Assembly: GCA_016700035.1 (NCBI GenBank)
Contig: CP064998.1
Span: 135,021 to 199,020 of the forward strand
Reading direction: 5' to 3'
Origin: a bacterium
Lineage (GTDB): Bacteria > Patescibacteriota > Saccharimonadia > CAILAD01 > GCA-016700035
DNA length: 64,000 nucleotides
The notes under the pieces were generated by a model. It did not search any database. It worked only from the letters and a program-made list of their open reading frames with translations, and was not told the DNA's origin. Made by a program: the position numbers and the translations under genes. This document shows, piece by piece, positions 9,072 through 43,105 of this stretch (position 1 is its first letter; every line of letters starts with the position of its first letter).

Positions 9072-12000
9072 GTGATATCAGGTATAATAAGCACAAGTAG
9101 TTTTATGGTGCTCTTACAAGAGGCTGTTACCAAGAATTTTATGAAGAAAAATACAATTGAACATCTGGGGCAAGCCTCAAAAAAAGTCTTAGCTACACCT
9201 GGCAGGTGCTATGTTGCGGCATCTTCTACGCGAAGTCGCACAATTATTCCAGTTCATCAGAAGCTATCTAAAAAATTTGGCTGGTATGAGAAGTGGCACA
9301 AGCATCCTCATCACAAGAAGGTGCATGGGGCGGTGTTGGGTGCTTATCTGATTGCTTTAATTGTATCCTTTAGTATTTTTCAGATGGCAAAGGCTGGAGA
9401 CCTTAATGATGTTTGGGATTTTTCGAATGATACCGGCCTTACGCTATCAGATTCTAACCTGATTGAAGTAAGTAATGGGGTGGTTCGCTTGAAAGCCCAG
9501 AACTACGCTAGCGACGGAAATACAGTGGGTTTGTGGCATAGTGATGAAAATAGTGGATCAACCATGGCTGATAGTTCGGCAAACGGCAATACAGCTACTT
9601 TGGTAGGTTCTCCAACTTGGTCGGTAGGTAATTTAGTAAATGCTATTAATTTTAACGGCACCAGTCAGTATGCTAGCGCGAATGATTCGGCCTCACTCTC
9701 CATAACTGGAAATAATACGCTGGAAAGTTGGGTAAAATTCTCTAACCCATTTAGTGCTGGTTCGTCGCAATATCGACAAACCATACTGGATAAAGGTAGT
9801 TATCAACTTTATTATGATAGCGAGACAGGTCGAGTAACTTATGAGCTCGAAAATAGTGGGGCAAACTCTTGGACTCAGCAAGCTGGGTACGACATGTTAA
9901 ATAATAACGGTGCAAAAATAAAGAAGAGTTGGGATCAAAACGGCAAACAAAATGCACAAGCAACCGTTAAGATGGGCGATAAAATTTATGCAGCTTTGGG
10001 TGGAAGCACGAATGATGCAGAAATATGGGAGTATGATACTTTAACCAATGACTGGAGTCAGGTTGCTGGAGATGGCATCAACTCCAGTTGGAATAACGAA
10101 ATAAGCACCAATGCATATGAATCTGTTTTGTCGTTGGCAACAAATGGTACAGACACTTTGTATGCAGGTCTAGGCACTGGGACTAACGACGGAGATGTTT
10201 GGCGTTTTAAAAGCGGTTCGTGGTTAAAAATAGGTGGTGATGGCATCAATTCAAGTTGGCCAGGTAACTCTTTTAACGGTGTATATTCATTAGCCGTAAA
10301 TGGCTCCACCGTTTGGGCAGGACTTGGCAGCGGTGGTAACGCAGCTCAAGCGTGGGTATGTAATGATTGTGAAAATAATCCTAATTGGGGCGGAAGCCGA
10401 TTAGGTGGCTTTAATGGAACTGCTCGTGGTTGGCCAGCTAACTATGAAATTGTATATGCAATGACGTTGGTTGGAGGCAATCCAGTGGTTGGGTTAGGAG
10501 CAAGTGCGGGTGATGGCGAAGTTTGGCAGTGTACGGCTAATTGTTCTACTCCAGGATCGGCTACGTGGGTTAAACTGGGTGGTGACGGGAGTGGATCTGG
10601 AGGTCAGAGTTGGGGGTCGGCTGCCGAATATGTGCTTACACTTGCATCCAATGGTAATACTATCTATGTTGGCACCGGTGTTACAGCTAATGCAGACACT
10701 GAAGTCTGGTCGTGTGATGTGACGGTTAATTGCACGCCAACTGGTACTGGCTGGACAAGACTTGGTACTAATGCTACTTTTGGTTCGACTAAACTCGGGG
10801 TTTATAGTATCTCGAACAATGGCAGTACATTGTATGTGGGGGTCGGTGGCTCAACTGGAGACGATGAAGTTTGGCGTTATGATGGGTCTTGGACAAAAGT
10901 TGGTGGCGATAATCTTAATAGCGGTTGGAGCTCTACTCATCAATATGCAAGGTCAGTTTTAGTGGATGGCACAACTGTTTATGCAGGCCTGCAAAATACC
11001 ACAGAAGCATATATGTGGAAGTGCTCTAACTGTGATAGTTCACCTAACTGGGGCGGTATACGTATCGGCGGTAAATACGTTAATAAAAGTTGGGGTCAAT
11101 ATAATTTACAAAGTATTGAATCATCGTCAACGGCTGGTGGAAAATTGTATGTTGGTACGGGCAGCACGGTTGCTGGAAATGCAACGGTATGGGAACAAGA
11201 TCCATCTTCTGGAAATTGGACTATGGTTGGGGGTCAAGGTATAAATTCAAGCTGGAGTCCGGATACTTACGAGGCGGTCTGGTCGATGACCAATTATAAA
11301 AATAAACTATATGTGGGCTTGGGAAGTACAGTTGGTGAGGCAGAAGTTTGGCGTTATGATAACCCTGGTTGGACTAAAGTAGCCGATGGTAATCCATCGG
11401 TTGGTAGTGCATGGGGCAATAACTATGAGCAGGTGTTGTCTTTAGGGGTTGCGAACGACAAACTTTATGCTGGGCTAGGTGCAAGTTCTGGTGACGGAGA
11501 AGTTTGGGTTTGTAATGGATGTGATGGAGCAAGTCCAAATTGGGGTGGTGCAGCAATCGGTGGAACAGCAACTGGCAATTGGGGCACAACGCCACATTCT
11601 GCGGTTAGCTCAATGGTTACATATAAAGGATCTTTATATGTGGGCCTGGGTAATTATACTACTGGGCTTGCAGAAGTTTGGCGTTACAGCGGTGCTGGCA
11701 CAAACTGGACAAAAGTTGGCGGAGATGCCATTAACTCTAGTTGGGCAAATAGCCAGTATGAAGATGTGCCAAACTTAGTTGTTTGGAATGACAAGATCAT
11801 TGCTGGACTTGGATCTAGTGGAGTTGGAGCTCCAAATAATGACGCAGAGGTGTGGTCATGTACGGATTGCGACGGAGGTTCACCAACCTGGGCTAAAATC
11901 GGTGGTGATAGTAATGGGTCTGATAATTTGGGCTGGTTGGATGCGAGCAATTATGATAGGGTAAAATCTTTAGCGGTTTATAACGGTGATTTATATGCTG

Positions 12001-15000
12001 GGCTCGGACTGAGTACTGGTGACGGAGAAGTTTGGCGGTTTAACGGATCTGCCTGGTCGCAAGTTGGTGGTGACGGTACAAATAACGGCTGGATAGATTC
12101 TGTTGTCGAAGAAGTCTCGGCAATGATTGTTTATCGTGGAAAGCTGTATGTAGGTACTGGCAACAGCGCAAATAGCGATGCTATGGTCTGGTCATATGGA
12201 GATAACGGCTATTTACAATCTTCGACCACCAGCCAAGATACTAGTTGGCACCACGTGGCAGCTCGCTATAACGGTACCACTATGGAGCTTTTGATAGACG
12301 GCACCAGTGTTGGTACAGCTACTAAAACAGTTACCATGCCGGATGGCAATTTGCCACTTTTGCTTGGTAAATCTTATGGTGGTTTTGACAACGGTCGCTC
12401 ACAAGGGTTTTTTGAAGGAACTTTAGATGAAGTCCGTATTTCAAATATTAATAGAAATTCATTTACTACAAGTCCCTATACGAGCAGTGTGGTTACAGTA
12501 GAGCTAACAGATGCTATACGTAAAAATGGTGTTTGGAATTGGGATTCGCTTATGGCTACAGAAAATCCAGCCGGTGGAACCATTGCTTATCGACTGAGTG
12601 ATGATGATGGAGTGAGCTGGAAGTATTGGGATGGTTCGAGTTGGGCAAATTCAGCGTCGGTCACTCAGGTGAATGCTATATCTGTAATTGATACAAATAT
12701 TGATTCATTTCCAGTGAGCTTTTCGGGTATTAAATGGCAGGCAGTTTTGCAGGGGAACGGCAATCAGCAAGTTTCGGTTGGTGATATATCATTATCTTCG
12801 GTTTCAGATAGTGATGATCCTAGTGTAAATGCATCATCTATTCAGATGCAGAAATCAAACGGTGGTCCTGCGGTAATCAGTAATGGCTGGACTAATGGCT
12901 CAGCGCCATATTTTAGCTGGACGGCAGCCAATGACGCAAAATCCGGGATTAAAGGGTACTGTTTAAGCTTGAGTCAGACACCTTCAGATAATCCAATTAC
13001 AACAAAGGGGATCTTAGGTACTAGCCCAGCTAACACGGGTGGCAATTGTCAATTTGTTGTGACTACTACATCAATTGATCTAGCAACTGCTGGCTATCTA
13101 GCAACACCCCTAACATCATCAAGCTCCCCATATTATCTAAGTATTAAGGCAATAGATAATGCAGGTAATGTTTATAGTACCACTGAACAGTTCCAATTTA
13201 GGTTTGACAATACCAATCCTGCAAATCCGGGCTATATAACTGCTCCATCTGGCTTTATTAACACTAAACAGGCAACATTGACTTGGCCGAGTTCTGGTGG
13301 GACTGCGGCCCAAGATACTAACTCGGGTGTAGCCGGCCTACAATATCGCATTAATGGCGGCACTTGGTATGGAGATAACCATAATGGTAGTCAGGATGCT
13401 ACTGATCTACTATCAAATGATGGTAATTATGCGACAGTTGATCCAATAGATTTTAATGTGCTTGTTGATGGAATTAATACTTTTGAATTTAGGACATGGG
13501 ATAATGCCGGTAATTATACGACAAGCTTTGTTACAGCGGATTTAAAGATAAATACAAATGGTGCACCATCGCAGCCTCAAAATGTTACTGCGAGCCCGAG
13601 TACTAATACGGCCAATGCTTTTGCTTTTAGCTGGGATGCACCCACAACTTTTGTAGGGGACGAGAATAACCTAACTTATTGCTATACGATTAATACGGTA
13701 CCAAATGCAAGTAATTGTACATTTACACCACCAGGTATCACGTCTCTTGGATCGAATGCCTATGCGACTCAACCTGGTGCAAATATTTTCTATGTAGTCG
13801 CTAAAGATGAATCAAACAATATAAATTACACAACATATTCACAGGTGACTTTTACTGCTAATACTGTTGCTCCGGGTATCCCACTAAACTCAGATATAGT
13901 CGATGTTTCTATTAAGTCGACGAGCAATTGGCGCCTTGCTCTCACCTGGGATCCACCGACCAATATTGGTTCAGGTGTTGCTTCATATAAGATCTACCGG
14001 TCAACAAATAATGCCACATTTGTTTATATTGGATCCAGTACGAGTACAACGTATATTGATGCGGGACTTTCCCAGGTTGAATATTATTATCGTGTAAAGG
14101 CATGTGACTCTACTAATAATTGTGGCGCTGAGAGCTCATCAGTTTCAATGATCCCAACGGGTAAATTTACCTCACCAGCTAATCTTACAACAGACCCTAG
14201 TGTAGCTAATATTACAACACGTAGGGCTAGTATTGATTGGTCCACGGATAGACCAAGTGATTCAAAAATTGCAATCGGTACCAAAACTGGTGAGTATAGT
14301 CCTTCTGAGCTCGCTAACTCCGATCAAGTTACCAGTCATATGATTGACTTAACAAATCTCCAAGCTGGTACGACGTATTATTATGTTGCTAAATGGACCG
14401 ATGAGGATGGTAATACAGGTATGAGTTCAGAGCTGTCGTTTACGACCTCTCCAGCTCCAATAGTTAAAGAGGTACAAGCAACTAGGATCGGTTTAAGCTC
14501 TGCTACGATTCAGTTTTCAGTGCGACAAGCCACACAGGCTAAGATTTATTATGGCCAAAGTGAAGGGTTTGGTGGCCTAAAGTTGGTTAATACATCCACG
14601 GCTGAATCTAGTTATACTGTTGATTTAGCAGATCTATCGGATGGGGTAAAATATTTTTACAAAGTTAACAGTGTAGATAGTGAAGGCAATGAATATGAGG
14701 GTAGTGTTCTAACTTTTACAACACCACAAAGGCCAAAGATATCAAATGTTACGCTTCAACCTGTAGAAGGCGAGCCAACAAGCACCCAGCGTGTTGGTTG
14801 GATAACTAATGTGCCTACCACTTCTCAGGTAGTGTACGGTCGTACAGGCGGAGTGACTCAAGAGATTAGTGATTCACAATTGGTTACAGAGCATGAAGTA
14901 GTAATGCGTGACTTGCAGGATGATAGTCAGTATTCACTAATAGTCCAGTCGCGAGATGATGGTGGTAATCTTGCGACAAGTGAGCGTCAGGTTTTTAAGA

Positions 15001-15395
15001 CAGCATTAGACACTAGGCCACCAAAAGTGTCTGATGTAAGTGTAGAAACTACAATTCGTGGAGTGGGTAGCGAGGCTCGTGGTCAATTAGTAATAACCTG
15101 GAAGACGGATGAGCCCTCAACCAGTCAAGTTGCTTTTGGAGAGGGTGCTAGCACTGCATCATTCTCCAGTATGACAACTGAAGATGCTATTTTAACCACT
15201 GAGCACATTGTTATTGTCTCGGATCTATCAACAGCAAAGGTTTACAATGTACAGGCGCTATCAAAGGATAGGTCGGGTAATCAGGTTAAATCTGACCCCC
15301 AGTCTACAATAGTGGGGCGTGCTTCTGACTCTGTACTATCCATTATCTTTAATACTTTACAGAAGATGTTTGGTTTTTTGGGTAAGGAAAGTTAA
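9072..15395 (+). CDS. giant (2107 aa) membrane-anchored surface protein: N-terminal basic tail + single TM, about 14 beta-propeller-like repeats, LamG/concanavalin-like domain, long array of FN3/purple-acid-phosphatase-N-like domains, conserved C-terminal tail
   Basis: single uninterrupted ORF; repeats of type LYxGxG...GDGEVWxC..C....NWGG; LamG-like segment HHVAARYNGTTMELLIDG...LDEVRISN; C-terminal 1000 aa homologous to 46277..50794. The true start may be the internal Met at about 9141. Confidence 0.85.
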   Translation: MISGIISTSSFMVLLQEAVTKNFMKKNTIEHLGQASKKVLATPGRCYVAASSTRSRTIIPVHQKLSKKFGWYEKWHKHPHHKKVHGAVLGAYLIALIVSFSIFQMAKAGDLNDVWDFSNDTGLTLSDSNLIEVSNGVVRLKAQNYASDGNTVGLWHSDENSGSTMADSSANGNTATLVGSPTWSVGNLVNAINFNGTSQYASANDSASLSITGNNTLESWVKFSNPFSAGSSQYRQTILDKGSYQLYYDSETGRVTYELENSGANSWTQQAGYDMLNNNGAKIKKSWDQNGKQNAQATVKMGDKIYAALGGSTNDAEIWEYDTLTNDWSQVAGDGINSSWNNEISTNAYESVLSLATNGTDTLYAGLGTGTNDGDVWRFKSGSWLKIGGDGINSSWPGNSFNGVYSLAVNGSTVWAGLGSGGNAAQAWVCNDCENNPNWGGSRLGGFNGTARGWPANYEIVYAMTLVGGNPVVGLGASAGDGEVWQCTANCSTPGSATWVKLGGDGSGSGGQSWGSAAEYVLTLASNGNTIYVGTGVTANADTEVWSCDVTVNCTPTGTGWTRLGTNATFGSTKLGVYSISNNGSTLYVGVGGSTGDDEVWRYDGSWTKVGGDNLNSGWSSTHQYARSVLVDGTTVYAGLQNTTEAYMWKCSNCDSSPNWGGIRIGGKYVNKSWGQYNLQSIESSSTAGGKLYVGTGSTVAGNATVWEQDPSSGNWTMVGGQGINSSWSPDTYEAVWSMTNYKNKLYVGLGSTVGEAEVWRYDNPGWTKVADGNPSVGSAWGNNYEQVLSLGVANDKLYAGLGASSGDGEVWVCNGCDGASPNWGGAAIGGTATGNWGTTPHSAVSSMVTYKGSLYVGLGNYTTGLAEVWRYSGAGTNWTKVGGDAINSSWANSQYEDVPNLVVWNDKIIAGLGSSGVGAPNNDAEVWSCTDCDGGSPTWAKIGGDSNGSDNLGWLDASNYDRVKSLAVYNGDLYAGLGLSTGDGEVWRFNGSAWSQVGGDGTNNGWIDSVVEEVSAMIVYRGKLYVGTGNSANSDAMVWSYGDNGYLQSSTTSQDTSWHHVAARYNGTTMELLIDGTSVGTATKTVTMPDGNLPLLLGKSYGGFDNGRSQGFFEGTLDEVRISNINRNSFTTSPYTSSVVTVELTDAIRKNGVWNWDSLMATENPAGGTIAYRLSDDDGVSWKYWDGSSWANSASVTQVNAISVIDTNIDSFPVSFSGIKWQAVLQGNGNQQVSVGDISLSSVSDSDDPSVNASSIQMQKSNGGPAVISNGWTNGSAPYFSWTAANDAKSGIKGYCLSLSQTPSDNPITTKGILGTSPANTGGNCQFVVTTTSIDLATAGYLATPLTSSSSPYYLSIKAIDNAGNVYSTTEQFQFRFDNTNPANPGYITAPSGFINTKQATLTWPSSGGTAAQDTNSGVAGLQYRINGGTWYGDNHNGSQDATDLLSNDGNYATVDPIDFNVLVDGINTFEFRTWDNAGNYTTSFVTADLKINTNGAPSQPQNVTASPSTNTANAFAFSWDAPTTFVGDENNLTYCYTINTVPNASNCTFTPPGITSLGSNAYATQPGANIFYVVAKDESNNINYTTYSQVTFTANTVAPGIPLNSDIVDVSIKSTSNWRLALTWDPPTNIGSGVASYKIYRSTNNATFVYIGSSTSTTYIDAGLSQVEYYYRVKACDSTNNCGAESSSVSMIPTGKFTSPANLTTDPSVANITTRRASIDWSTDRPSDSKIAIGTKTGEYSPSELANSDQVTSHMIDLTNLQAGTTYYYVAKWTDEDGNTGMSSELSFTTSPAPIVKEVQATRIGLSSATIQFSVRQATQAKIYYGQSEGFGGLKLVNTSTAESSYTVDLADLSDGVKYFYKVNSVDSEGNEYEGSVLTFTTPQRPKISNVTLQPVEGEPTSTQRVGWITNVPTTSQVVYGRTGGVTQEISDSQLVTEHEVVMRDLQDDSQYSLIVQSRDDGGNLATSERQVFKTALDTRPPKVSDVSVETTIRGVGSEARGQLVITWKTDEPSTSQVAFGEGASTASFSSMTTEDAILTTEHIVIVSDLSTAKVYNVQALSKDRSGNQVKSDPQSTIVGRASDSVLSIIFNTLQKMFGFLGKES

Positions 15396-15396
15396 T

Positions 15397-16344
15397 ATGG
15401 CAATTCAAACACCACAAGCACTGATTAGCCTTGAGCAAGTTGATAAGAAGTTTGTCTTGAGCACAGAGACGGTTCACGCATTAAAGAGTGTAAGTTTTAG
15501 TATTCCTAAAGAATCCTTCTCAATTATTTATGGGCCATCTGGTTCTGGTAAGTCTACTCTACTAAATACTATGGTTGGGCTTGAACCACCGACTGCAGGA
15601 CGAGTGGTAATTGAAGGTCAAGATTTATACAGTCTAAATTCAGATCAACGGGCTAATTTTCGGGCTCGTACGTTAGGGATGGTATATCAAACAAATTATT
15701 GGGTAAATAGTCTTACTGTGCTTGAAAATGTTTGCATGCCTTTATTTCTTGCGGGATATTCAAAACGACAAGCAATATCGGTAGCGTTGGACAGCTTAAC
15801 AATGGTAGGAATGGCGGATTTCACCAAGAAGCGCCCAACGGTATTGTCAGGCGGTCAACAGCAACGTGTTTCGATGGCTCGGGCTATCGTAGCTAATCCT
15901 GAGCTGATAGTAGCCGATGAGCCAACTGGTAACCTGGATACTAAAAATGGTGATATGATTATGAACTTGTTATCAGATCTCAACCATAAGCTTCATAAAA
16001 CAATTATTTTAGTAACACATAATTTAGAATATCTATCCTTAAGCACTCATCGAGTTCAGATTAAAGATGGTACTGTTGTAGAAGATGCCGGTATATATGG
16101 CCTTACTCCAAAACAAAAGAAAGAAAGAATAAAACGCCTCCAGGAGAGTTTTACGCAGAAGGGTGGACCAGCTAAAAGCAATATGACTATTGCTGAAATG
16201 CAAAATCAATTGGCCGGAGGAGATGCAGATGAAGTGGATTCGAATGAATCGGGCTCAAAAATATCTAAGGTGAATGAAGAAAAATTACAGTCAAAAAAAG
16301 GATTAGTTGATGGTGTGTCTAAGAAAAAAGGACATAAATCATGA
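15397..16344 (+). CDS. ABC transporter ATP-binding protein, MacB/LolD/FtsE-like, with Lys/Glu-rich C-terminal extension
   Basis: Walker A GPSGSGKST, signature LSGGQQQRV, Walker B LIVADEPT; start 2 nt after the giant-protein stop. Confidence 0.85.
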   Translation: MAIQTPQALISLEQVDKKFVLSTETVHALKSVSFSIPKESFSIIYGPSGSGKSTLLNTMVGLEPPTAGRVVIEGQDLYSLNSDQRANFRARTLGMVYQTNYWVNSLTVLENVCMPLFLAGYSKRQAISVALDSLTMVGMADFTKKRPTVLSGGQQQRVSMARAIVANPELIVADEPTGNLDTKNGDMIMNLLSDLNHKLHKTIILVTHNLEYLSLSTHRVQIKDGTVVEDAGIYGLTPKQKKERIKRLQESFTQKGGPAKSNMTIAEMQNQLAGGDADEVDSNESGSKISKVNEEKLQSKKGLVDGVSKKKGHKS

Positions 16345-17606
16345 ACTTAGAGCATCATAACCAGCTGAATAGCCCTAAAAAGAAAAACAAAACAAAGTAT
16401 ATTCGTATGCGTATTTTGCTATCGATGGCTTATAGAAATTTACTATTTAAAAAGTTACGTACCTTTTTAACGGTACTGGGTGTTGTTATTGGGATTGGTG
16501 CAATTGTATTCTTGGTTTCACTTGGACTGGGGCTACAGCAGGTTGTGACAAATGAGATTGTAGGTTCTAAGTCGGTTAAAGCAATTGATGTTTCTTCACC
16601 TAAACCAAAAACCATTAAGCTCAATAAAGATGCAGTTAATAAATTCATTAAGTATCCTAAAGTTGATAGTGTGGCACCAACCTTCTCATTTGCGGGTAAA
16701 GTGGTATTTCAGAGTTCAAATACAGATAGTGTCATAAACGGATCTGACCAAAATTATTTTGATCTGAGTTCATTTAAGTTAGTTGAAGGCAAGAAGATTG
16801 CCTTGGAATCTGATGATCAAGTAGTAGTTAACACATCGCTTTTAAAGACCATTGGTATTTCAGATAGCTCTAAAATTATGAATCAGAAGATCAAGCTAGT
16901 TATACCAAAAGAGAAGCGTCAAGAAGCCAGCGGTAATAATGAGGTCAAAGATGATTTTGAAAGAATTATGACTGTTGTGGGGGTGGTTGATTCTGGGTCT
17001 GGTGCTGAGGTATTTACAACAGATACGCTACTTTTGAGTTCTGGTTTTCAGGACTATAATCAAGTAAAGGTGGTTGTCGAAACAAAAGAAGATGTTGCAA
17101 TGGTACGAAAACAAATCGAGGGCCTTGGATTTATCACCGCTTCACCAGTTGATACTTTAGATCAAATTAATCAAGTATTTACTATCCTGAATATTCTCTT
17201 AGCCGGATTTGGTGGTATTGGTATGGTGATTGCCGTATTGGGGATGTTTAATACGCTCACTATCTCGCTTTTAGAGCGTACCAAAGAAATCGGATTGTTA
17301 GTTTCTTTAGGGGCTCGCCGAAAAGATGTGCGGAGATTATTCATTATTGAGGCATTAGCATTATCATTTATGGGCGCATCATTTGGCATTATGGCATCGT
17401 GGGGATTAGGCGGATTAATTAATACGGCTTTATTTAGCCTTGCTAGATCTAGAGGGGTATCAGAAACTTTTTCAGTATTCTATATACCAATATGGTTAAT
17501 TTTGGTTATTCTGGTCTTTACTACTATCGTGGGATTGCTAGTAGTAGCATATCCTGCGCACAGGGCTTCACGTATTAGTCCGATAGATGCATTACGGCAT
17601 GAGTAG
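16341..17606 (+). CDS. ABC transporter permease, FtsX/MacB type (TM1, about 220-aa extracytoplasmic domain, 3 C-terminal TMs)
   Basis: FtsX-family C-terminal motif ISLLERTKEIGLLVSLGARRKDVRRLFIIEAL; ATGA overlap with the ATPase gene. Confidence 0.85.
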   Translation: MNLEHHNQLNSPKKKNKTKYIRMRILLSMAYRNLLFKKLRTFLTVLGVVIGIGAIVFLVSLGLGLQQVVTNEIVGSKSVKAIDVSSPKPKTIKLNKDAVNKFIKYPKVDSVAPTFSFAGKVVFQSSNTDSVINGSDQNYFDLSSFKLVEGKKIALESDDQVVVNTSLLKTIGISDSSKIMNQKIKLVIPKEKRQEASGNNEVKDDFERIMTVVGVVDSGSGAEVFTTDTLLLSSGFQDYNQVKVVVETKEDVAMVRKQIEGLGFITASPVDTLDQINQVFTILNILLAGFGGIGMVIAVLGMFNTLTISLLERTKEIGLLVSLGARRKDVRRLFIIEALALSFMGASFGIMASWGLGGLINTALFSLARSRGVSETFSVFYIPIWLILVILVFTTIVGLLVVAYPAHRASRISPIDALRHE

Positions 17607-29343: not shown

Positions 29344-30756
29344 ATGCGCAAACGTAGCGAGCTATTTTTTAACCTTCTCCTAGTACCACTTGATGTATTG
29401 GCGGTGCTGGTGGGCTTTGTTGTGGCCTATATTATTCGTGTTGAGTACAGTTTAAAGCCAACGGTTTATCAGGTTCCGGGGTGGGAATATCTGTCAGCAT
29501 TAGTGGTATTAACGCCATTTATAGTGCTATTTTTTGCATTAGCTGGTCTATATCGCTATGAGTCTATGAGGAGTCGGTGGCGAGAGTACTTACAGGCTAT
29601 AATTGCTGTTTCTGCTAGTACTATGTTTCTTATTATTGTAGACTTTTTTGCAACAAAGCCGTTATTTCCATCCAAGGCGGTGGTGTTTTATGGTTTTATT
29701 TTTGCAATAGTTTTTGTTGTTGTAGAGCGATTTATCATAAATCTGTTTCAGCGTTGGCTTTTCCATTTCGGTATTGGTGTTCGTCAGGTTGTCATAGTTG
29801 GAGTGGGGCGTATTGCCGATGATGTGACCTATTCATTACAGCGTAACCCGGGTTTTCGTTTAGTAAAAACTTTAGAGCGCAAGCAAGATACACTAGCCAG
29901 ACTTGAGAAATTAACCAAGAAGAATCATATTGATGAGCTTTTTATAGCCGATAGAACACCAGCAGAGGCCGATCAGTTGGAATACATTCGATTTGCACAT
30001 AAAAATCACATTGTATACAAATTTATTCCAAGTTTGGCTGGAATATACCAAACTCGTAGTCAGCCCTCTCTTTATGCAGATTATCCTGTATTAGAGATTG
30101 TGCGTACACCACTCGATGGTTGGTGGCGAGTGTATAAAACAGTATTTGATTATTTGGGTGCTCTTTTGGGCGTGCTACTATTGAGTCCGGTATTTTTAAT
30201 TATTGCTATTATTATTAAGCTAACCGATGGTGGTAGTGTCTTTTATGGGCATAATCGGATTGGTCGGCACGGCCATGTGATTCGAGTATGGAAGTTTCGC
30301 TCGATGTATGCGCAGTATTCCACTGGTGGAGCATATAGTGGTAAGACTGATCTTGAGATTATCCGTGAGATTGGTAATGATGCTATGGTTGAAGAGTTTA
30401 AGCTCAATCAGAAATTAAAGAAAGATCCACGCGTAACACCAGTTGGGCGCTTTATTAGGGCAACTAGTATTGATGAATTGCCACAATTATTTAACGTCTT
30501 AAAGGGGGAGTTGAGCTTAATTGGTCCAAGGCCGGTTACTGAGGTAGAATTAGTGCGCTATAAAGATAAGGCGCCAACTTTTCTATTGATTAAGCCTGGT
30601 ATCACTGGTTTATGGCAGGTTTCTGGGCGCAATGATATAAGCTATGACGAGAGAGTAAAGCTGGATGTATACTATGTTGAAAACTGGAGAGCCTCCATGG
30701 ATTTACGAATTTTATTACGTACATTGGGAGTAATTTTTAAGCGTAGGGGGTACTGA
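29344..30756 (+). CDS. polyprenyl glycosylphosphotransferase (bacterial sugar transferase, WbaP/EpsB-like initiating enzyme)
   Basis: C-terminal domain LSPVFLIIAIIIKLTDGGSVFY...RVWKFRSM...DELPQLFNVLKGELSLIGPRP; 4-5 N-terminal TMs. Confidence 0.8.
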   Translation: MRKRSELFFNLLLVPLDVLAVLVGFVVAYIIRVEYSLKPTVYQVPGWEYLSALVVLTPFIVLFFALAGLYRYESMRSRWREYLQAIIAVSASTMFLIIVDFFATKPLFPSKAVVFYGFIFAIVFVVVERFIINLFQRWLFHFGIGVRQVVIVGVGRIADDVTYSLQRNPGFRLVKTLERKQDTLARLEKLTKKNHIDELFIADRTPAEADQLEYIRFAHKNHIVYKFIPSLAGIYQTRSQPSLYADYPVLEIVRTPLDGWWRVYKTVFDYLGALLGVLLLSPVFLIIAIIIKLTDGGSVFYGHNRIGRHGHVIRVWKFRSMYAQYSTGGAYSGKTDLEIIREIGNDAMVEEFKLNQKLKKDPRVTPVGRFIRATSIDELPQLFNVLKGELSLIGPRPVTEVELVRYKDKAPTFLLIKPGITGLWQVSGRNDISYDERVKLDVYYVENWRASMDLRILLRTLGVIFKRRGY

Positions 30757-30757
30757 G

Positions 30758-31906
30758 ATGACCGAGCAAGATTTATCGAAGCTAAAGGTGGCAGTTGTGC
30801 ATGACTGGCTAACAAATCTAGCGGGTGCTGAAAAAGTTGTCATCGAAATACTCAAGCTGTTTCCGCAGGCTGATATCTATACCAGCGTGTATAAGCCCAG
30901 TGCCTTCAAGCAGGTTTTTAGTGGCCACAAGGTATATACTTCATTTTTGCAGAAAGTTCCACTAGCAAAAACCAAACATCAACTTTTTCCTGTTTTGAGA
31001 CGATATGCTTTTGAATTGTTTGATTTTTCTGACTATGATCTAGTGATAAGCTCATCGACAGCCGAGGGTAAGGGTGTCATTACTAATGAGTCAACCATAC
31101 ATATTTCATACGTACATACCCCTACGCGCTACTTTTGGAGCCACTATCAGCAATACCTTAAAGATCCGGGTTTTGGTGCGCTAGATCCTATTGTGCGGTT
31201 TCAGTTAAAACGTACCATTAAAGCATCACGTCGATGGGACTATGCTGCAGCTCAACGTCCAGATAGATTATTAGCTAACTCTAAAACGGTGCAGGAAAGG
31301 ATTGAAAAATATTATAAGAGACCAGCTCAAGTGGTTTACCCCCCAGTAGATATTGAGCGGTTTGCTACAATTCAGGTGCGTCCACAAGATGTGCCAGATA
31401 AGTATTTTATTGTAGCATCACGACTAATTCCGTATAAGCGCTTCGATATTGCAGTTAAGGCCTGTGAAAAAGCTAACACTCAACTGGTTGTAGTGGGTGA
31501 TGGTAGCGAACTCGCTAAATTAAAAGACTTGGCTGGTGATAAGGTAATTTTTAAAGGGCGCGCATCAAATAGTGAATTGACAGCCTATATTCAGCATGCT
31601 GAAGCCCTCCTATTCCCTGGAGAGGAAGATTTTGGCATTGTGCCAGTAGAAGCTATGGCGGCTGGTACGCCAGTTATAGCTTATGCGGAGGGAGGAGTAA
31701 CCGAAACTATCATTCCATCTGTTACGGGGGAGTTGATTGATTCCCAGTCAGTGGGGGCGTTTGCGGAAGTTATTGGTAGCTTTGATGCACAGCAATATGA
31801 TAAAAAAGATCTCGCAAGACAGGCGGAAAAATTTAGCCAGAGAGCATTTAGGACTGGTTTTGAAGAGGTTGTACGGACAGGATTACGTGCCACGTCTACT
31901 ACATAA
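30758..31906 (+). CDS. glycosyltransferase family 1 (GT4-type)
   Basis: C-terminal EX7E-like region LFPGEEDFGIVPVEAMAAGTPVIA. Confidence 0.8.
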   Translation: MTEQDLSKLKVAVVHDWLTNLAGAEKVVIEILKLFPQADIYTSVYKPSAFKQVFSGHKVYTSFLQKVPLAKTKHQLFPVLRRYAFELFDFSDYDLVISSSTAEGKGVITNESTIHISYVHTPTRYFWSHYQQYLKDPGFGALDPIVRFQLKRTIKASRRWDYAAAQRPDRLLANSKTVQERIEKYYKRPAQVVYPPVDIERFATIQVRPQDVPDKYFIVASRLIPYKRFDIAVKACEKANTQLVVVGDGSELAKLKDLAGDKVIFKGRASNSELTAYIQHAEALLFPGEEDFGIVPVEAMAAGTPVIAYAEGGVTETIIPSVTGELIDSQSVGAFAEVIGSFDAQQYDKKDLARQAEKFSQRAFRTGFEEVVRTGLRATSTT

Positions 31907-33284
31907 AAAGACTATCCTTATATCTGTTGTAATTTTTAGTATTTTCTTGATTGTTACACAGCCTCTATACCGATTCTTGATGCCTGTCACGCAGCTTAAT
32001 GAAATAACATCAAAGCCAGCCTTTCAGGTTTATAGAGCCCTTACTGGGGGTAGTCATCCTACGCGAACATTACTAGTGTTCGCCAATAATGCAGAACAGC
32101 GTATTGGTGGAGGGTTTGTTGGTAGCGTGGGTATCTTAAATGGCGCTCACAACCGACTTCAGATTGAGTCTGTTAGGAGTATTTACTACTACGATCATAG
32201 ACTGGAGGAAAAAGGAGCATTCTTAAGTGCTCCGGAGTATTTACAGAATCTAACTGCTAAGATCTACGCCAGGGATTCACTGCTTACAACATCTAATAGT
32301 GAAAATTCTCAAAAATTTAGAGACTTATATGCTCGTGAAACAGGTGAATATATAGATAATGTAGTAATAATTACACCAAAAGTACTTTCATTACTTATAA
32401 AATATATTGGCCCAATTGATCTACCGGGCTACAACTTAACAATTACAAGCGATAACATCTTAACTACATTACAGCAAGAGGTTGAGTCGGGCCAAGATAA
32501 AGCCGACGGTAGAGATCCAAAAGCTATATTAAAAGTTCTTGCCGAACAGTTAGTTATTAGAGTCCCCAATCTTACATCTATACAGCTGACACAGCTCAGT
32601 GACGATATTATAGGGCTGATGCAGACCCAGCAGATGTATGTTTATTTGCAGGATCACTCAGTAATGGAGAAGTTATCGATGTATCAAGAGCCTATAGCTC
32701 AGGCTGGCGATCCAAATACCATCAATATAGCAGTGGCAAATCATGCCGCCAATAAGTCGTCACAAGCTATTGAGCAGGAGGTACGGGTTACTATGCATAT
32801 CTCACAAGATGGTATGGCGCGACTGAGTGCACAGATTAGTCGTATGCATACCTCTGATTATGCTGGTTATTATATTGATCCTAAAACTGGACAGGGTAAT
32901 TTCTTAATTGGCGATGATTTAAGCTGGGTTCAGTTAACGTTACCTCGAGATACTAAGATGATTACGGGGGGACCCATGAAGGCCCAGAAAGAACCAGGGG
33001 TCTTTGGTGCGGATGTTAGTACTAAGCCACTTACTACCAGCAAGGTAATTGCAGAGTTTGTTCTTCCAACACGTTATGCAATGCTTGAACAGATTACAAT
33101 TGATGAGACTTTTCTAGCCCAGTTTGGTTGGCTTGGTCAGAAAGTTCAATTTAAAGTTGAGGTTCCGGACAACTATAGGTTTATGTATGGCTCTGATGGG
33201 GTGCAAGGCAATTTTAATATGGCCAGTCGTAGTTTTTTCCAGATTGATGATGAGAAGATGCACTTTGTATTTAGTAAGCAATAA
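31887..33284 (+). CDS. hypothetical N-terminally membrane-anchored extracytoplasmic protein (last gene of glycan locus II)
   Basis: long ORF; probable GTG start at 31887 with AGGA upstream (track start 31737 overlaps the GT1 gene by 170 nt); single TM VVIFSIFLIV. Confidence 0.5.
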   Translation: MPRLLHKKTILISVVIFSIFLIVTQPLYRFLMPVTQLNEITSKPAFQVYRALTGGSHPTRTLLVFANNAEQRIGGGFVGSVGILNGAHNRLQIESVRSIYYYDHRLEEKGAFLSAPEYLQNLTAKIYARDSLLTTSNSENSQKFRDLYARETGEYIDNVVIITPKVLSLLIKYIGPIDLPGYNLTITSDNILTTLQQEVESGQDKADGRDPKAILKVLAEQLVIRVPNLTSIQLTQLSDDIIGLMQTQQMYVYLQDHSVMEKLSMYQEPIAQAGDPNTINIAVANHAANKSSQAIEQEVRVTMHISQDGMARLSAQISRMHTSDYAGYYIDPKTGQGNFLIGDDLSWVQLTLPRDTKMITGGPMKAQKEPGVFGADVSTKPLTTSKVIAEFVLPTRYAMLEQITIDETFLAQFGWLGQKVQFKVEVPDNYRFMYGSDGVQGNFNMASRSFFQIDDEKMHFVFSKQ

Positions 33285-36221: not shown

Positions 36222-36566
36222 ATGGAGGCAGATGTGGCTCGAAAAAAACAACATCTACGATATCAGGCTAAGAAAGGTCGTTCACAATCTATTAAAAGTG
36301 AATCGACTAAGCTTAGGAAACCAGATGTTAAAAGTGATAATGATGTAGTGAATACATCAAAAAACCTAAAGAAGAAGCATGATAATAGTGTACCTGCAGA
36401 AGTAACAAAATTATCGGATACTGAGACGAAATTTATTCGGAAGGAGATTATCTACATTGGGTTTATTAGTTTAGTATTGGTGATTTTTTATGTCATAATT
36501 TTTCTAGTTTTTAAATATACTTCAATCGACGAGTGGTTAAGTAGTTTTATTCAATTGGGGCAGTGA
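36222..36566 (+). CDS. hypothetical basic protein with C-terminal TM (tail-anchored)
   Basis: ORF only. Confidence 0.35.
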   Translation: MEADVARKKQHLRYQAKKGRSQSIKSESTKLRKPDVKSDNDVVNTSKNLKKKHDNSVPAEVTKLSDTETKFIRKEIIYIGFISLVLVIFYVIIFLVFKYTSIDEWLSSFIQLGQ

Positions 36567-38085
36567 TAGTCTGCGCCCTGTAGAGACTGTTCTTAAATTG
36601 GAGTGCTTCAGAAAGATGGGTGGCTTCAATAAGGGTAGAATCTTCCAGATCGGCAATGGTGCGTGCAACTTTTAGCGTGCGTGCGGCGCTACGTTGAGAA
36701 ATGCCAAAGTGATTGAGGGCGGTTTCAATAAGTTTTTTAGCATCTGGGCTAACATTACAGATAGTGGAGAGTTTTTGTGGAGGAATATTATTATTTGTTT
36801 TGTATGGTTCATTGGTGAAGCGCTTACTCTGAATAACCCGAGCTTTTTCTATTCTTGTGCGTAGGTATTGAGAGTTAATAGTTTCCTCTACTGTCTCTAG
36901 TGGGCTGGATACAGAGGGGCTTGATATAAAGCAATGCATATCGAAACGGTCTAGTAGTGGGCCCGATATTCTACCTTGATAACGAGAGATTGCCGATGGA
37001 CTACAGGTGCAACTCTGTTGTACGGAACCAAAGTAGCCACATGGGCAAGGATTCATGGCGCCCAGCAAGATAAAATTTGCAGGATAAGTAAGTGCAGTTT
37101 GGGCACGGGCAATATGAACTACATTATCTTCAATTGGTTGTCGGAGGGCTTCTAGGACGGAGCGTCTAAATTCTGGTAGTTCATCTAAGAAGAGGACTCC
37201 ATGATGAGATAGTGTTACTTCGCCTGGCTTTGGTATTTGCCCACCACCAACGAGTGCCACATCACTGGCGGTATGGTGTGGTGAGCGCATGGGGCGCGCT
37301 AAAGAATACTGGTAGCTTTCATTGTATATACCATGTAGATAAGTGACTTCTGCTAGTTCTTCGGTATCAAGATCGGGAAGGATAGATGTGAAAGCATGAG
37401 CCAATAGGGTTTTTCCGCTTCCCGGCGGACCAATAAGGAGCACATTGTGTTCACCGGCGGCTGCAATTTCTAAGGCTCGCTTAGGCATCTGTAGGCCTTT
37501 AACACTCGAGAAGTCGGTGTAGGATGGCTGTTTGTTAGCCTGTGGTTTTGGAGCTGGATAATTAGGTTGGTTGTCTTCACTTGCGAGCCAGCGATATATT
37601 TCACGTAGGGTTTTTGCTCGTACAACTTGAATACCAGGGTTAATTTTGGCTGGTAGTGCTGGTGTGTCGTGGGCGATTACGATAGTTTCACAATCCAGCT
37701 TATTTGCCGTAATGATACTAGCGATAGTATCTCTTGTGGTGCGTAGCTCGCCATTCAGCGACAGCTCTGCAGCAAAAAAGATGCTATTTGGCTGTTCAGG
37801 GATCTGTTTGGAGGCTATCAGGATGCCGATGGCCATGGCTAGCTCAAAACCAGTGCCATGCTTGGCGGTATCGGCTGGTGCTAGATTGAGAACAATTTTT
37901 CGAGCCGGGAATTCAAGGCCACTGTTACGAATTGCGCTACGCAATCGTTCGCGTGACTCCTCTACACTTTTTGAAGGCAATCCAACCAGTGATATACCGG
38001 GTAAGCCGGCAAAAATATCGGCTTCTATAGTAATACGATGAGGTTTTGCGCCATAGTGTGTGATAGCGTGTGTTCGTGCTAGCAT
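36547..38085 (-). CDS. Mg-chelatase-like AAA+ protein, YifB/ComM family
   Basis: Lon-like N-domain, Walker A LLIGPPGSGKT, C-terminal Mg_chelatase_C-like region. Confidence 0.85.
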   Translation of the reverse strand: MLARTHAITHYGAKPHRITIEADIFAGLPGISLVGLPSKSVEESRERLRSAIRNSGLEFPARKIVLNLAPADTAKHGTGFELAMAIGILIASKQIPEQPNSIFFAAELSLNGELRTTRDTIASIITANKLDCETIVIAHDTPALPAKINPGIQVVRAKTLREIYRWLASEDNQPNYPAPKPQANKQPSYTDFSSVKGLQMPKRALEIAAAGEHNVLLIGPPGSGKTLLAHAFTSILPDLDTEELAEVTYLHGIYNESYQYSLARPMRSPHHTASDVALVGGGQIPKPGEVTLSHHGVLFLDELPEFRRSVLEALRQPIEDNVVHIARAQTALTYPANFILLGAMNPCPCGYFGSVQQSCTCSPSAISRYQGRISGPLLDRFDMHCFISSPSVSSPLETVEETINSQYLRTRIEKARVIQSKRFTNEPYKTNNNIPPQKLSTICNVSPDAKKLIETALNHFGISQRSAARTLKVARTIADLEDSTLIEATHLSEALQFKNSLYRAQTITAPIE

Positions 38086-38161
38086 AGCTTGTGTACCTGA
38101 TTAATTACGAACACTATACCGAACAAAAAATATATAAACAAGCTTGAGCGTTATACTTAAC

Positions 38162-39199
38162 TTATCGATACCATTCAGCGGATGCTTCGGGTGGAATAGT
38201 ATTAATTATGACGCCCGTCGAGACCTCTAGGCCACCCCAGGGTGAAACAACATTACGACCCTTAAATTTGAGAGTTATCCTCTGGTGGGCTACCAATCCC
38301 TCTTCTATTGAGAGGTTATAGTTAATGTTATTAGAGTTCAGTTTATAGGTAATTTGTTTCACTAGTGGTGCTAGGGTTGCGATTTCATGGCCTTCTAGGT
38401 CGCTGAGGTGGATTTTTTGGTACTTTGGCATAATCCAGGCCTCCATTTGCCACTGCGGTGCATAGGGAGAAAAAGCTAGCCAGTCATTATTTTCGGCGAT
38501 AATACGAAGGTTCTCACGTTTTTCAAAGTGAATAATATCATCATATGGGTCACGACTATTGTCTAGTACGAATTTTTGGATGGTGTGGGCTTCTTCGCGC
38601 AGTCGAGGCGGCTCAAATGGTAGTGCAAAAATCTGAGAATGGGCATGCGCCAGTGAAGCACCTGCTTCATAGCCATCATTTCGAAAGATACTGACGTATT
38701 TAATGTGCGGCATGTCATGGAGAGCTTGAGAACGAGCTTGGTAGGTGAGGAGTATTTTTTCAATTTGCCCAACTGGTAATTCACCAAGTGCGGTATTACG
38801 TAGAGGGGTATCAATTACAATTTCTTGTGAGCCGTAGGCGTCAGGATTATCTATGGTGAGAGCAGGGAACTTATTGGCTACAACTTTTACAGCCCAGCCA
38901 TCACCCCGTTCATTTGGGAGGGTATAGATTTCCTCTTGCAGGTCAAGACGAGGTGAACTGGAGGTCTCCACTAGGGGATGGTCGCTACTGACGGCATCAT
39001 AGGGGCGCCCGGCACGTTTGGGTGCAATGAGAACATAATAATCGTGTATATAATCACGCCGAACCTCTGTTTTCATACCTTCTGTTTTTAAGTCTAATTG
39101 GTTATGCGATGAAGATGTGCTATTGGTGGACGATCCTTGCAGTGAGGATTCTTCAGGAGTATTGAATGGCTGTATTGGGGTTGGTGTAAAGTTGTTCAT
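38162..39199 (-). CDS. galactose-1-phosphate uridylyltransferase-like (HIT superfamily branch III) nucleotidyltransferase/phosphorylase
   Basis: active-site-like H-A-H-S-Q (LAHAHSQIFA) and GalT-like N-terminal half. Confidence 0.6.
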   Translation of the reverse strand: MNNFTPTPIQPFNTPEESSLQGSSTNSTSSSHNQLDLKTEGMKTEVRRDYIHDYYVLIAPKRAGRPYDAVSSDHPLVETSSSPRLDLQEEIYTLPNERGDGWAVKVVANKFPALTIDNPDAYGSQEIVIDTPLRNTALGELPVGQIEKILLTYQARSQALHDMPHIKYVSIFRNDGYEAGASLAHAHSQIFALPFEPPRLREEAHTIQKFVLDNSRDPYDDIIHFEKRENLRIIAENNDWLAFSPYAPQWQMEAWIMPKYQKIHLSDLEGHEIATLAPLVKQITYKLNSNNINYNLSIEEGLVAHQRITLKFKGRNVVSPWGGLEVSTGVIINTIPPEASAEWYR

Positions 39200-39238
39200 T
39201 ACACTTATGATACCCGAAGCAGAGATAAAACGTAAGTA

Positions 39239-40381
39239 CTATGAGTCTTGCGTAAGCCTTGCCGCAAGAAAGTGGAGGATAGTATAAGCTGCTTCAGGAT
39301 GGCTAATCTCCGTCAGACGAGCAACATAGGCTTGGTAGTCTTTTTGAATCTCGCTAATAGCCGTGATAATTTCACTGCTTTTGCGAGCAATATGGCCAAT
39401 TTTATAGCGTTCAACAAGCTCAGCGTTGCCTTCTTCTTGACCAGGGATAACTTTATTGATGATAAGTGGTTTTTTAGCAGCTATACATTCCATAACTGTC
39501 GAACCACCAGCTTTAGTAATGACGATGTCGCTTGCTTTAATGAGCTGTGGCATATTATTTGTCCAGCCAATTAGGTGTCTATTGGGGGTTTCCCAGAAAT
39601 TATATTCTTTAATTTGACGATGTAATTCTTTATCTCGTCCAGTAACAACGACGAGAGTCATTTCAGGATAATGAGTGTCGATAGCTCGTATCACACGCAG
39701 TACATAAGGGGCGCGTAGGGCAGATGCACTGAACAATATTATTTTCCTATCTATTGATATGTGTTTTTTACTTAGTATTGATGTAATATCCTCATCATTA
39801 TTCATAAAACTTTCATGCACAGGGTAGCCAAGAGAGAATATTTTATTATTACTTACACCAAGCTGATGGAGGCTAGAGGCTGTTGGTTCGTTAGCCACCA
39901 GATAAAAATCGCTATCAGGAATTGTCCAGGATGAATGAACTGAGATAGAGTCTGTAATGAGTGTAGCAAATTCTAGATTAGGAAATGACTTCTTTGAAAT
40001 TTGCAAAGCCAGGTATTGCCAGACCGGATAGTTTGAAATTATAAGATCTGGATTATATGAAGATAGGAGGTTTTTAAGATGATTTTGCCTTAACGGGTAG
40101 CTCAGTAAGTTAGCAAGCCGAATTGGTGTATGGGTGATGTCGGTCGAAACATACATCCATTTATAAAGGGCGGGAAGGTGTTTTGTATTGATTTCGTATA
40201 GTTTCTTCGATGTTTTATTAAATAGTTTGCCAATTTCTTCAGAAAAATCGATAATTTTTACATCAATCAATAGCTCAGGGTGGTTGATAGCGACATTTTT
40301 TAAGGCCTTAGCTGTTGCGAGATGCCCCTGGCCAAATGATGATGATAGAATGAGTATTGTTTTTTTTACATCTTTACTCAT
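39239..40381 (-). CDS. glycosyltransferase family 28 (MGDG synthase / UgtP-like diacylglycerol glycosyltransferase)
   Basis: N-terminus KTILILSSSFGQGHLATAKAL resembles the MGDG-synthase N-domain; GT-B C-terminal half. Confidence 0.65.
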   Translation of the reverse strand: MSKDVKKTILILSSSFGQGHLATAKALKNVAINHPELLIDVKIIDFSEEIGKLFNKTSKKLYEINTKHLPALYKWMYVSTDITHTPIRLANLLSYPLRQNHLKNLLSSYNPDLIISNYPVWQYLALQISKKSFPNLEFATLITDSISVHSSWTIPDSDFYLVANEPTASSLHQLGVSNNKIFSLGYPVHESFMNNDEDITSILSKKHISIDRKIILFSASALRAPYVLRVIRAIDTHYPEMTLVVVTGRDKELHRQIKEYNFWETPNRHLIGWTNNMPQLIKASDIVITKAGGSTVMECIAAKKPLIINKVIPGQEEGNAELVERYKIGHIARKSSEIITAISEIQKDYQAYVARLTEISHPEAAYTILHFLAARLTQDS

Positions 40382-40384
40382 GTT

Positions 40385-42701: not shown

Positions 42702-43105
42702 GGGGCTGACATTAGCTTCGACAGAGTGATCATTGACAGGCATATCTCGCAAGCCGGGTTGAGATGAACGTTATCCGTCTCATATCAATAAGTGTAAACT
42801 CACTTGTTAGCAAGGTACGCAGTGCTTTTGTAGCACCCGCTCTTGCACCAGCTTTCGCTTAATTCGTGGAAGCCATCCTGTAAGCTCATACTAGCTAGAG
42901 CTTCAATGGGTGTCATATCTTTGCTAGTTGCTTCAAGGCGTGTTCTGTGTCCGCGTTTTGACTAAGACTTTAGATATCGGGAAAGGCGTGAGGATTGGTT
43001 CGTTTTTGTCTCGCTGTCTTTCTAAAACAAGTTAAGCGAACTAAGCTTGTAGTGAGTATGCGTGGCACACACTGGACGAGGGTGCGATTCCCTCCAGCTC
43101 CACCA
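42702..43105 (+). ncRNA. ssrA: tmRNA (SsrA)
   Basis: 5' GGGGCUGACAUUAGCUUCGACAG and 3' GGACGAGGGUGCGAUUCCCUCCAGCUCCACCA (tRNA-Ala-like T-arm/acceptor); internal ORF ending ...GCACCCGCUCUUGCACCAGCUUUCGCUUAA (tag about ...APALAPAFA*). Confidence 0.8.

Follow-up and report, generated by a model that had tools for sequence, protein, structure and literature searches.

A predicted C-terminal helix conserved on giant Saccharibacteria proteins encoded in operons with type VII ABC transporters

Results

Two giant-protein operons share a C-terminal tail

We analyzed a stretch of 64,000 nucleotides (hereafter the window) from contig CP064998.1 of the Saccharibacteria assembly GCA_016700035.1 (positions 135,021 to 199,020, forward strand), in which two copies of an operon encoding a giant protein and an ATP-binding cassette (ABC) transporter take up ~14 kb of genome. 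Our subject is the short peptide at the extreme C-terminus of both giants, referred to here as the tail, together with its relationship to the transporter genes that directly follow it. The two operons comprise the following features, in window coordinates.

9072..15395, + strand: giant protein 1, 2107 codons counted from the first GTG
15315..15377, + strand: tail core of giant 1, GRASDSVLSIIFNTLQKMFGF, residues G2082-F2102, with a predicted helix V2088-F2100 at nt 15333..15371
15378..15392, + strand (stop 15393..15395): extension LGKES of giant 1, overlapping the ABC ribosome-binding region (aaggaaag)
15397..16344, + strand: ABC ATPase 1, similar to LolD, FtsE and the MacB nucleotide-binding domain (NBD), with its ATG 1 nt past the giant 1 stop
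16341..17606, + strand: permease 1, type VII (MacB_PCD + FtsX)
46277..50794, + strand: giant protein 2, 1505 residues
50714..50776, + strand: tail core of giant 2, GRGTDSIFSVIFNALQAIFGF, residues G1480-F1500
50777..50791, + strand (stop 50792..50794): extension GDSSI of giant 2, whose stop overlaps the ABC start codon (ATGA)
50791..51597, + strand: ABC ATPase 2, in ATGA overlap with the giant 2 stop
51590..52873, + strand: permease 2, type VII (MacB_PCD + FtsX)

Giant 1, which probably starts at the ATG at 9141, is composed in order of a long basic n-region, one hydrophobic segment (residues 84-107), a beta-propeller-like/LamG head, an FN3 stalk of ~900 residues, and the tail. Giant 2 follows the same plan, with a long n-region, a hydrophobic segment at residues 102-132, a DUF2341 head, the stalk module found in giant 1, and a tail of its own. 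The C-terminal region of the giants is made up of FN3/Pur_ac_phosph_N domains in Pfam, and a scan of the whole proteins against Pfam and NCBIfam returned no HemolysinCabind or RTX match. No Pfam or NCBIfam model covers the tail, either when whole proteins were searched or when the last 100 residues were searched at E <= 10; the latter NCBIfam scan gave only a weak match of the FN3 region to MXAN_2561.

Giant 1 ends in ...GRASDSVLSIIFNTLQKMFGF-LGKES (fuller end ...IVGRASDSVLSIIFNTLQKMFGFLGKES, then the stop) and giant 2 in ...GRGTDSIFSVIFNALQAIFGF-GDSSI (fuller end ...IIGRGTDSIFSVIFNALQAIFGFGDSSI, then the stop). An earlier note, made from the letters of this DNA, had quoted both tails and placed them behind the last FN3-like domain as a conserved terminal element; the quoted peptides agree exactly with the translated open reading frames, and their position and genuine conservation were borne out. 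The note's view of the giants as otherwise diverged paralogs was overstated, as their last ~900 residues align end to end at 44% identity (BLASTP). The two tail cores are identical at 13 of 21 positions, which is no better than the adjacent FN3 domains. The similarity of the giants is thus far beyond chance, yet inherited, and the tail is no isolated conserved island. When a hidden Markov model (HMM) of the tail alone was run over the window translated in all six frames, it matched the two giants alone and revealed no third copy.

The tail belongs to a single protein family of Saccharibacteria

We searched the tail-only HMM (32 positions) against 1.84 billion (1.84e9) representative proteins at E <= 1e-3 and recovered 56 matches, all of which belong to one family. 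The match lies at the extreme C-terminus (within a few residues) in all but two of them, and these two look like gene-call read-throughs; every matching protein that is long enough to show it has the same ~900-residue FN3 stalk module. The tail is therefore restricted to one family, and was not found on unrelated proteins as it might have been had the motif been a general one. The heads that precede the conserved stalk are swapped among members and include propeller/LamG types (as in giant 1), DUF2341 types (as in giant 2), RCC1, and others; this swapping can be seen at locus L085 (5001..10400) and in the window itself (9072..12700 and 46277..48000).

Among homologs of the last 300 residues, those with a name are assigned to Candidatus Saccharibacteria or Saccharimonadales. 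With a pattern scan over GTDB species, one genome each, we identified at least 574 stretches encoding relatives of the stalk, and the best 80 loci, which we examined, all come from metagenome-assembled genomes of Saccharibacteria/Patescibacteria except one titled Bacillota. That locus (L047, DATIJU010000010.1, 'Bacillota bacterium') has a giant/ABC operon typical of Saccharibacteria, tail included, and is probably mis-binned or mislabelled.

Together, these results show that the tail terminates the members of a family of giant secreted proteins specific to Saccharibacteria, in which a long Sec-type signal peptide is followed by a variable head, a ~900-residue FN3 stalk, the segment G-R-A-S-D-S, and an amphipathic helix of 13-14 residues ending in FG[FL]. 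Our literature searches on Saccharibacteria and Patescibacteria found no paper that describes the giant/ABC operon or the tail. We also considered the essential FN3 protein SEML1_0890 of Southlakia epibionticum (PMC10633639) as a homolog and rejected it, given that it has 195 residues and that the Pfam table of its genome lacks PF16656.

The tail peptide is conserved across orthologs

Of 54 homolog fragments from the database, 51 carry the tail. Truncation or a frameshift accounts for two of the exceptions, and the third has a variant sequence (IVRATDS) that our motif filter did not pick up. The tail is also present in all of the ~90 operons that we recovered from Saccharibacteria genomes. Across these ~90 operons and the 56 cluster representatives the tail is kept in orthologs, so that it is no peculiarity of the two giants in the window. 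The consensus in orthologs is IIGRASDSVLTI[IV][LF]NTL[QRK]K[IV]FG[FL], and a typical tail among database homologs reads ...IIGRASDSVLTIVLNTLRKVFG[FL].

In an alignment of 84 sequences, numbered within the last-300-residue fragment of giant 1 (in which 281-293 correspond to V2088-F2100), the most conserved tail residues are F293 (100%), I273 (98%), L289 (96%), A277 (95%), and G294 (94%), followed by R276 (89%), D279 (88%), and N287 (83%). Conservation extends over both faces of the predicted helix and both of its caps, with D279/S280 at the N-cap, and the segment GRASD is among the best conserved (R 89%, A 95%, D 88%). The information content of the tail is 3.2-3.5 bits per column, compared with 2.1-3.9 bits in 10-residue blocks of the preceding 270 residues of these 84 orthologs. 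By this measure the tail is under the constraint of a folded domain and no more. Residues past FG[FL] are unconserved and occur in only ~30% of the 84 aligned sequences; in 108 of 164 distinct tails (66%), the residue right after FG is the last one.

All synonymous codons are in use at the conserved tail positions (six for Leu17, found in 88 of 91 sequences, six for Arg4, and four for each Gly), which argues that selection acts on the tail peptide and not on an RNA or ribosome-binding signal. The codons past FGF (15378..15399 and 50777..50794) hold the ABC ribosome-binding region or the start overlap (aaggaaagttaatATG and ATGA, respectively). We rejected this overlap as the source of the tail conservation, since synonymous codons vary and the residues that overlap the ribosome-binding site, after FGF, are those that are not conserved.

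The tail is predicted to form a short amphipathic helix

We modeled the last 300 residues of giant 1 with AlphaFold2, using a 30-sequence alignment. The model contains three FN3-like beta-sandwiches with a predicted local distance difference test score (pLDDT) of ~90; a short RASDS linker connects the last strand (...TIVG) to a helix at 281-293 (VLSIIFNTLQKMF) with a pLDDT of 50-73. In this model the tail helix is 13 residues long, free, and capped, and it lacks confident packing against its own domain. The conserved S/D-S and G of the tail would fit helix N- and C-caps, and Foldseek searches with the stalk-end model returned generic tandem FN3 arrays only.

The tail had been described beforehand as amphipathic, and this held: its hydrophobic moment is 0.5-0.6 (lower figure 0.4) at 100 degrees versus 0.1-0.2 at 160 degrees, which is helical periodicity without beta periodicity. 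No transmembrane (TM) segment is present at the C-terminus of the giants, where no segment reaches a Kyte-Doolittle (KD) value of 1.6 over 19 residues.

These properties raise the possibility that the tail is an in-plane anchor, that is, an amphipathic helix embedded in the outer leaflet of the cytoplasmic membrane as in E. coli PBP5/PBP6; the ABC pair would then have a separate or indirect role, such as extracting or recycling the anchor. A helical moment of this size with moderate hydrophobicity, a predicted free helix at the extreme C-terminus, and a mature protein that would otherwise be anchorless if its signal peptide is cleaved are all consistent with this explanation, and on sequence and model a C-terminal amphipathic helix on a Sec-exported protein, as in the PBP5 type, appears to be present. 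However, the helix has only 13-14 residues, and its moment is only moderately significant, as 97-577 of 10,000 shuffles (1-6%) reach the observed value. The net charge is zero or negative in all 164 distinct tails, 13 of which, including that of giant 2, have no K or R, and such a charge would be unfavorable for binding an anionic membrane surface. Moreover, lipid-binding helices usually conserve amphipathicity rather than sequence, whereas here N287 and T288 on the polar face are strongly conserved and F293/G294 are nearly invariant. Conservation of both helix faces and of the caps would sooner be expected of a specific protein contact than of nonspecific binding to lipid, and we consider the in-plane anchor rather doubtful.

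Alternatively, the helix could be purely structural, packing on the last FN3 domain or bundling stalks into oligomers with no recognition by a transporter. The equal conservation of the tail and the neighboring FN3 domains would be expected in this case, as would the constant association of the helix with the same stalk module. Against it stand the low pLDDT of the helix beside domains of ~90, with no confident intramolecular packing predicted, and a length of 13 residues that is short for a coiled coil; a structural role would also leave unexplained the strict, translationally coupled linkage to the ABC genes described below. We regard it as unlikely.

The earlier note had likened the tail to the C-terminal signals of type I secretion systems (T1SS), to the C-terminal domain (CTD) of type IX secretion system (T9SS) substrates, and to PEP-CTERM/LPXTG signals. 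These analogies did not hold up, as the tail occurs on one family only and always behind the same ~900-residue stalk; a tail confined to one family is not a portable sorting signal. The individual signal classes were rejected as follows. There is no LPXTG motif, C-terminal TM stretch, or basic tail, and the net charge never exceeds zero. PEP-CTERM, GlyGly-CTERM, and MYXO-CTERM signals are disfavored by the lack of a TM helix, by occurrence on one family, and by the absence of any model match on the tail. A T9SS CTD would have to be reconciled with no CTD match in NCBIfam or Pfam, with a terminal element that is a 13-residue helix instead of a beta-sandwich of ~80-100 residues (TIGR04183 or type B), and with an organism that is a Saccharibacterium, whereas T9SS genes belong to diderms of the Bacteroidota type. 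Lastly, an outer-membrane beta-signal, which in diderms consists of a C-terminal aromatic residue with alternating hydrophobic periodicity, is at odds with the predicted helix and with a moment of 0.4-0.6 at 100 degrees versus 0.1-0.2 at 160 degrees.

Each giant is linked to its own type VII ABC transporter

We then compared the gene neighborhoods of the tail-bearing proteins. The earlier note had raised the question whether such proteins always neighbor FtsX-type ABC genes, and the ATPase is the next gene in every locus with enough downstream DNA and the permease follows wherever the contig reaches it. The distance from the giant stop to the ATPase ATG is mostly -4 to +3 nt across loci. The linkage extends to divergent members (L084, L085, and L083), and in the most divergent of all, L083, the next gene begins M...LFGPSG across an ATGA overlap. 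In a reverse search, all three of the permease homologs sampled (47-56% identity) sit behind an ATPase and a LamG/FN3 giant of ~2030 residues. Permeases 1 and 2 share 46% identity and the giant stalks 44%, and the type (1 or 2) of the giant, ATPase, and permease is concordant in 82 of 84 loci, the two exceptions being near-ties; the whole operon thus appears to have been duplicated and to have diverged as a unit. Each giant gene, or tandem pair of giant genes, is translationally coupled to its own type VII ABC ATPase and permease, and the three genes co-diverge.

Several further observations concern these operons. At two loci (L073, 4567..10356, and L084, 811..10121) two tail-bearing giants stand in tandem before a single ABC ATPase/permease pair, and one transporter may serve both giants there. 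The ABC frame of locus 1 is open from a GTG at 15319 (15319..16344), overlapping the tail-coding region in another frame; the true start of ATPase 1 is likely the ATG at 15397, which has aaggaa upstream. ATPase 1 bears a charged, low-complexity C-terminal extension of ~80 residues, rich in Lys, Glu, and Ser (residues 236-315, 16102..16341), that is shorter in ATPase 2; the ATPase orthologs range from 252 to 336 residues. Locus 1 is syntenic with L087, and the neighbors in the window are housekeeping and glycosyltransferase genes.

Both permeases match Pfam MacB_PCD (80 and 68 bits) and FtsX (70 and 61 bits), and both ATPases match ABC_tran (114 and 104 bits), all above cut-offs. In NCBIfam the best matches of the ATPases are LolD, FtsE, and the MacB NBD, all under the equivalog cut-offs, and the permeases fall far under every equivalog cut-off; no named subfamily therefore applies. 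Sequence matches of the permeases in the PDB are MacB, YtrF, Spr0694-95, and LolC/E/F. The AlphaFold2 model of permease 1 (pLDDT 79) has four TM helices, with TM1 at 38-73 and an ectodomain at residues ~81-267 ahead of TM2-4, and its top Foldseek matches are MacB, Spr0694-95, LolE, and YtrF. The ABC partner is a type VII transporter of the MacB/LolCE fold, having both a permease and a cognate nucleotide-binding subunit of that type.

Giant repetitive proteins with a conserved C-terminus beside ABC genes superficially resemble LapA/RTX adhesin loci, in which case the ABC pair would recognize the tail and export the giant across the membrane in the manner of a T1SS. We consider this highly improbable. 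The giants have predicted N-terminal signal peptides with AxA sites, and the operon encodes a separate NBD and a 4-TM FtsX/MacB_PCD permease, without an ABC_membrane/C39 exporter domain and without an adaptor or outer-membrane-factor gene. In addition, no RTX repeats were found in the giants, although these are typical rather than universal for T1SS substrates. MacB-family ABC transporters are held to lack a transmembrane substrate path and not to translocate substrates across the cytoplasmic membrane (PMC5985334). Type VII ABC transporters instead use ATP to act upon partners or anchors outside the membrane (PMC5985334, PMC7668044, PMC8333309, PMC10694151); examples are the expulsion of Sec-exported STII or dispersin, the extraction of lipoprotein anchors by LolCDE, and the conformational drive of EnvC or RipC by FtsEX (PMC5985334, PMC8333309, PMC7668044, PMC10694151).

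Export signal and possible processing of the giants

In all full-length members of the family, a long basic n-region precedes a single N-terminal hydrophobic segment. Typically, a small-x-small site comes next (AKA|G in giant 1 and AQA|F in giant 2), and in members with DUF2341-type heads an AxA-like site lies at a fixed spacing of ~6-7 residues ahead of a conserved QxDWSGG motif. By the -3/-1 rule we infer that the segment is a cleavable Sec signal peptide, and a cleaved signal peptide would leave the mature giant without an N-terminal anchor. A variable head on a conserved stalk and tail is the layout of C-terminally attached adhesins.

Just ahead of the hydrophobic core of the signal in giant 1 lies a His/Trp-rich motif, FGWYEKWHKHPHHKKVH (window 9276..9326, residues ~69-85). 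The pattern W[YF]xxWH occurs at the same place in 12 of 43 full-length members and is missing from giant 2. Like YSIRK or ESPR, it may serve for targeting within an extended signal peptide.

As GRASD is among the best-conserved segments, we also considered whether G-R-A-S-D-S could be a cleavage or recognition site at which the helix is cut off or swapped, in the manner of sortase or exosortase processing, or whether the ABC pair might eject the giant from the membrane so that it is shed. Such release has precedent: LolCDE and MacAB/Aat drive Sec-exported proteins out of the membrane or periplasm (PMC8333309, PMC5985334). However, no conserved protease or transpeptidase was found in the operon across the compared loci, and a role as helix N-cap would account for the S/D-S ahead of the helix just as well. 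A release or processing signal is, in our estimation, quite unlikely.

Other features of the window

A subtilase gene (Peptidase_S8, window 44284..46113, - strand) lies divergent from giant 2. We rejected this subtilase, and a sortase in L085, as processing partners, because neither is a conserved neighbor in other loci. Between the giant operons lie glycosyltransferase/sugar-transferase clusters (29344..33284 and 36547..42621; Bac_transf, GT1/GT4, MGDG_synth, and DUF4012), which suggests that envelope polysaccharide is synthesized by genes nearby. The window further contains five tRNA genes and a tmRNA gene (42702..43105, + strand) with the predicted tag peptide VNSLVSKVRSAFVAPALAPAFA.

Discussion

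Based on sequence comparison and structural modeling, we tentatively favor, with less than even confidence, the view that the tail, at the cell-proximal end of an adhesin-like stalk, is an element specific to this family that docks onto the cognate ABC transporter. We favor docking because of the conservation of sequence on both faces of the helix, a charge that is never positive, the absence of packing onto its own protein in the model, and the strict linkage within one operon together with co-divergence. Of the earlier proposal of a new recognition or anchoring signal for the MacB-like pair, recognition or anchoring remains the best explanation, by inference from these observations, and the notion of a general sorting or secretion signal does not.

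If the tail does dock in this way, Sec export and cleavage by signal peptidase would leave the conserved end of the stalk as the cell-proximal end of the protein. The tail helix would then dock into the dimer of the cognate MacB-type permease, at its extracytoplasmic or outer-leaflet portion, and the transporter would hold the giant on the cell surface. Mechanotransmission driven by ATP might subsequently position or activate the giant, as FtsEX does with EnvC, PcsB, or RipC; alternatively, the ATP-driven step might extract and release the hydrophobic end of the giant, as LolCDE does with lipoprotein anchors. The stronger form of this proposal, that a dedicated type VII ABC transporter grips the C-terminal helix of a Sec-exported adhesin-like giant and anchors, extends, retracts, or releases it by ATP-driven mechanotransmission, we put forward as doubtful.

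Several considerations weigh against docking. First, the conservation of the tail does not exceed that of the rest of the stalk, of which it could simply be a structural part. Second, the clade of the window and about one-third of orthologs tolerate 1-6 extra residues past FG[FL], and a free carboxylate at FG[FL] is therefore not required. Third, the genes of an operon are expected to be co-inherited whatever the ABC pair does. Fourth, if the N-terminal segment is an uncleaved anchor, the argument about proximal and distal ends reverses. Lastly, the family seems to be absent from one cultivated oral Saccharibacterium that has been tested genetically by transposon sequencing (Tn-seq), as its published Pfam table lacks PF16656.

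Saccharibacteria are obligate episymbionts with tiny genomes and a single membrane, and how they attach and operate their surface proteins is largely uncharted. The motorized grip on a C-terminal helix, if true, would be a previously undescribed kind of anchor, in a single-membrane bacterium, for episymbionts that contact their hosts. Were the helix a handle for a MacB-type motor, the partners of type VII ABC transporters would extend beyond activators of cell-wall hydrolases and lipoproteins, a sortase-independent route of anchoring would be defined, and a short, well-defined peptide would be available to mutate, tag, or use as bait. If the helix is only a structural end-cap, it still provides a clean family signature for annotation, as the tail HMM gave no off-family matches in 1.84 billion proteins.

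Comparison with known systems

The stalk, the amphipathic helix, and the MacB-type ABC transporter are each of known kinds, and it is their conserved combination that is undescribed. The giant adhesins of T1SS (LapA, SiiE, and MpIBP) share with this family a giant repetitive surface protein beside an ABC transporter and a conserved C-terminus. Those adhesins lack an N-terminal signal peptide and depend on a type IV-fold exporter with a fused 6-TM ABC_membrane domain, an adaptor (membrane-fusion protein), an outer-membrane factor, and RTX repeats, none of which applies here. LPXTG and PEP-/GlyGly-/MYXO-CTERM proteins likewise have a variable head on a repetitive stalk and end in a short conserved element. 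Their signals, however, are tripartite (motif, TM helix, and basic cluster), are spread over many unrelated proteins in a genome, and have a transpeptidase as their partner, whereas the tail described here has no TM helix or basic cluster, belongs to one family, and is paired with an ABC transporter. PBP5/PBP6 (DacA/DacC) are exported by Sec, lose their signal peptide by cleavage, and are then tethered to the membrane through a short amphipathic helix at the C-terminus. The tail differs from theirs in being conserved on both faces, in never being net positive, and in its genetic tie to an ABC transporter.

The closest structural relatives of the permease are found in LolCDE and in MacAB-TolC/Aat, the latter acting on STII and dispersin. 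LolCDE and MacAB/Aat work from the outer face of the cytoplasmic membrane and grip a hydrophobic anchor or a small protein (PMC8333309, PMC5985334). In contrast to their substrates, the giants have no lipobox or acylation site, and the hydrophobic element is a C-terminal peptide helix; the operon also lacks a LolA-like, MacA-like, or TolC-like partner. A likeness can be drawn as well to FtsEX (with EnvC, PcsB, CwlO, or RipC), a type VII ABC transporter with a separate ATPase and a 4-TM permease of the FtsX fold. FtsEX moves no substrate across the membrane; its ectodomain binds a helical part of a secreted partner, to which ATP-driven movement is passed on (PMC7668044, PMC10694151). The system described here differs from FtsEX in that its genes are strictly operonic and its pairing is seen in genetic linkage and co-divergence, in that its permease scores far under the FtsX equivalog cut-offs and has a full MacB-type Porter+Sabre ectodomain (MacB_PCD) instead of the small ectodomain of FtsX, and in that the partner is not a coiled-coil hydrolase activator but an FN3 protein of 1500-2100 residues with a 13-residue terminal helix.

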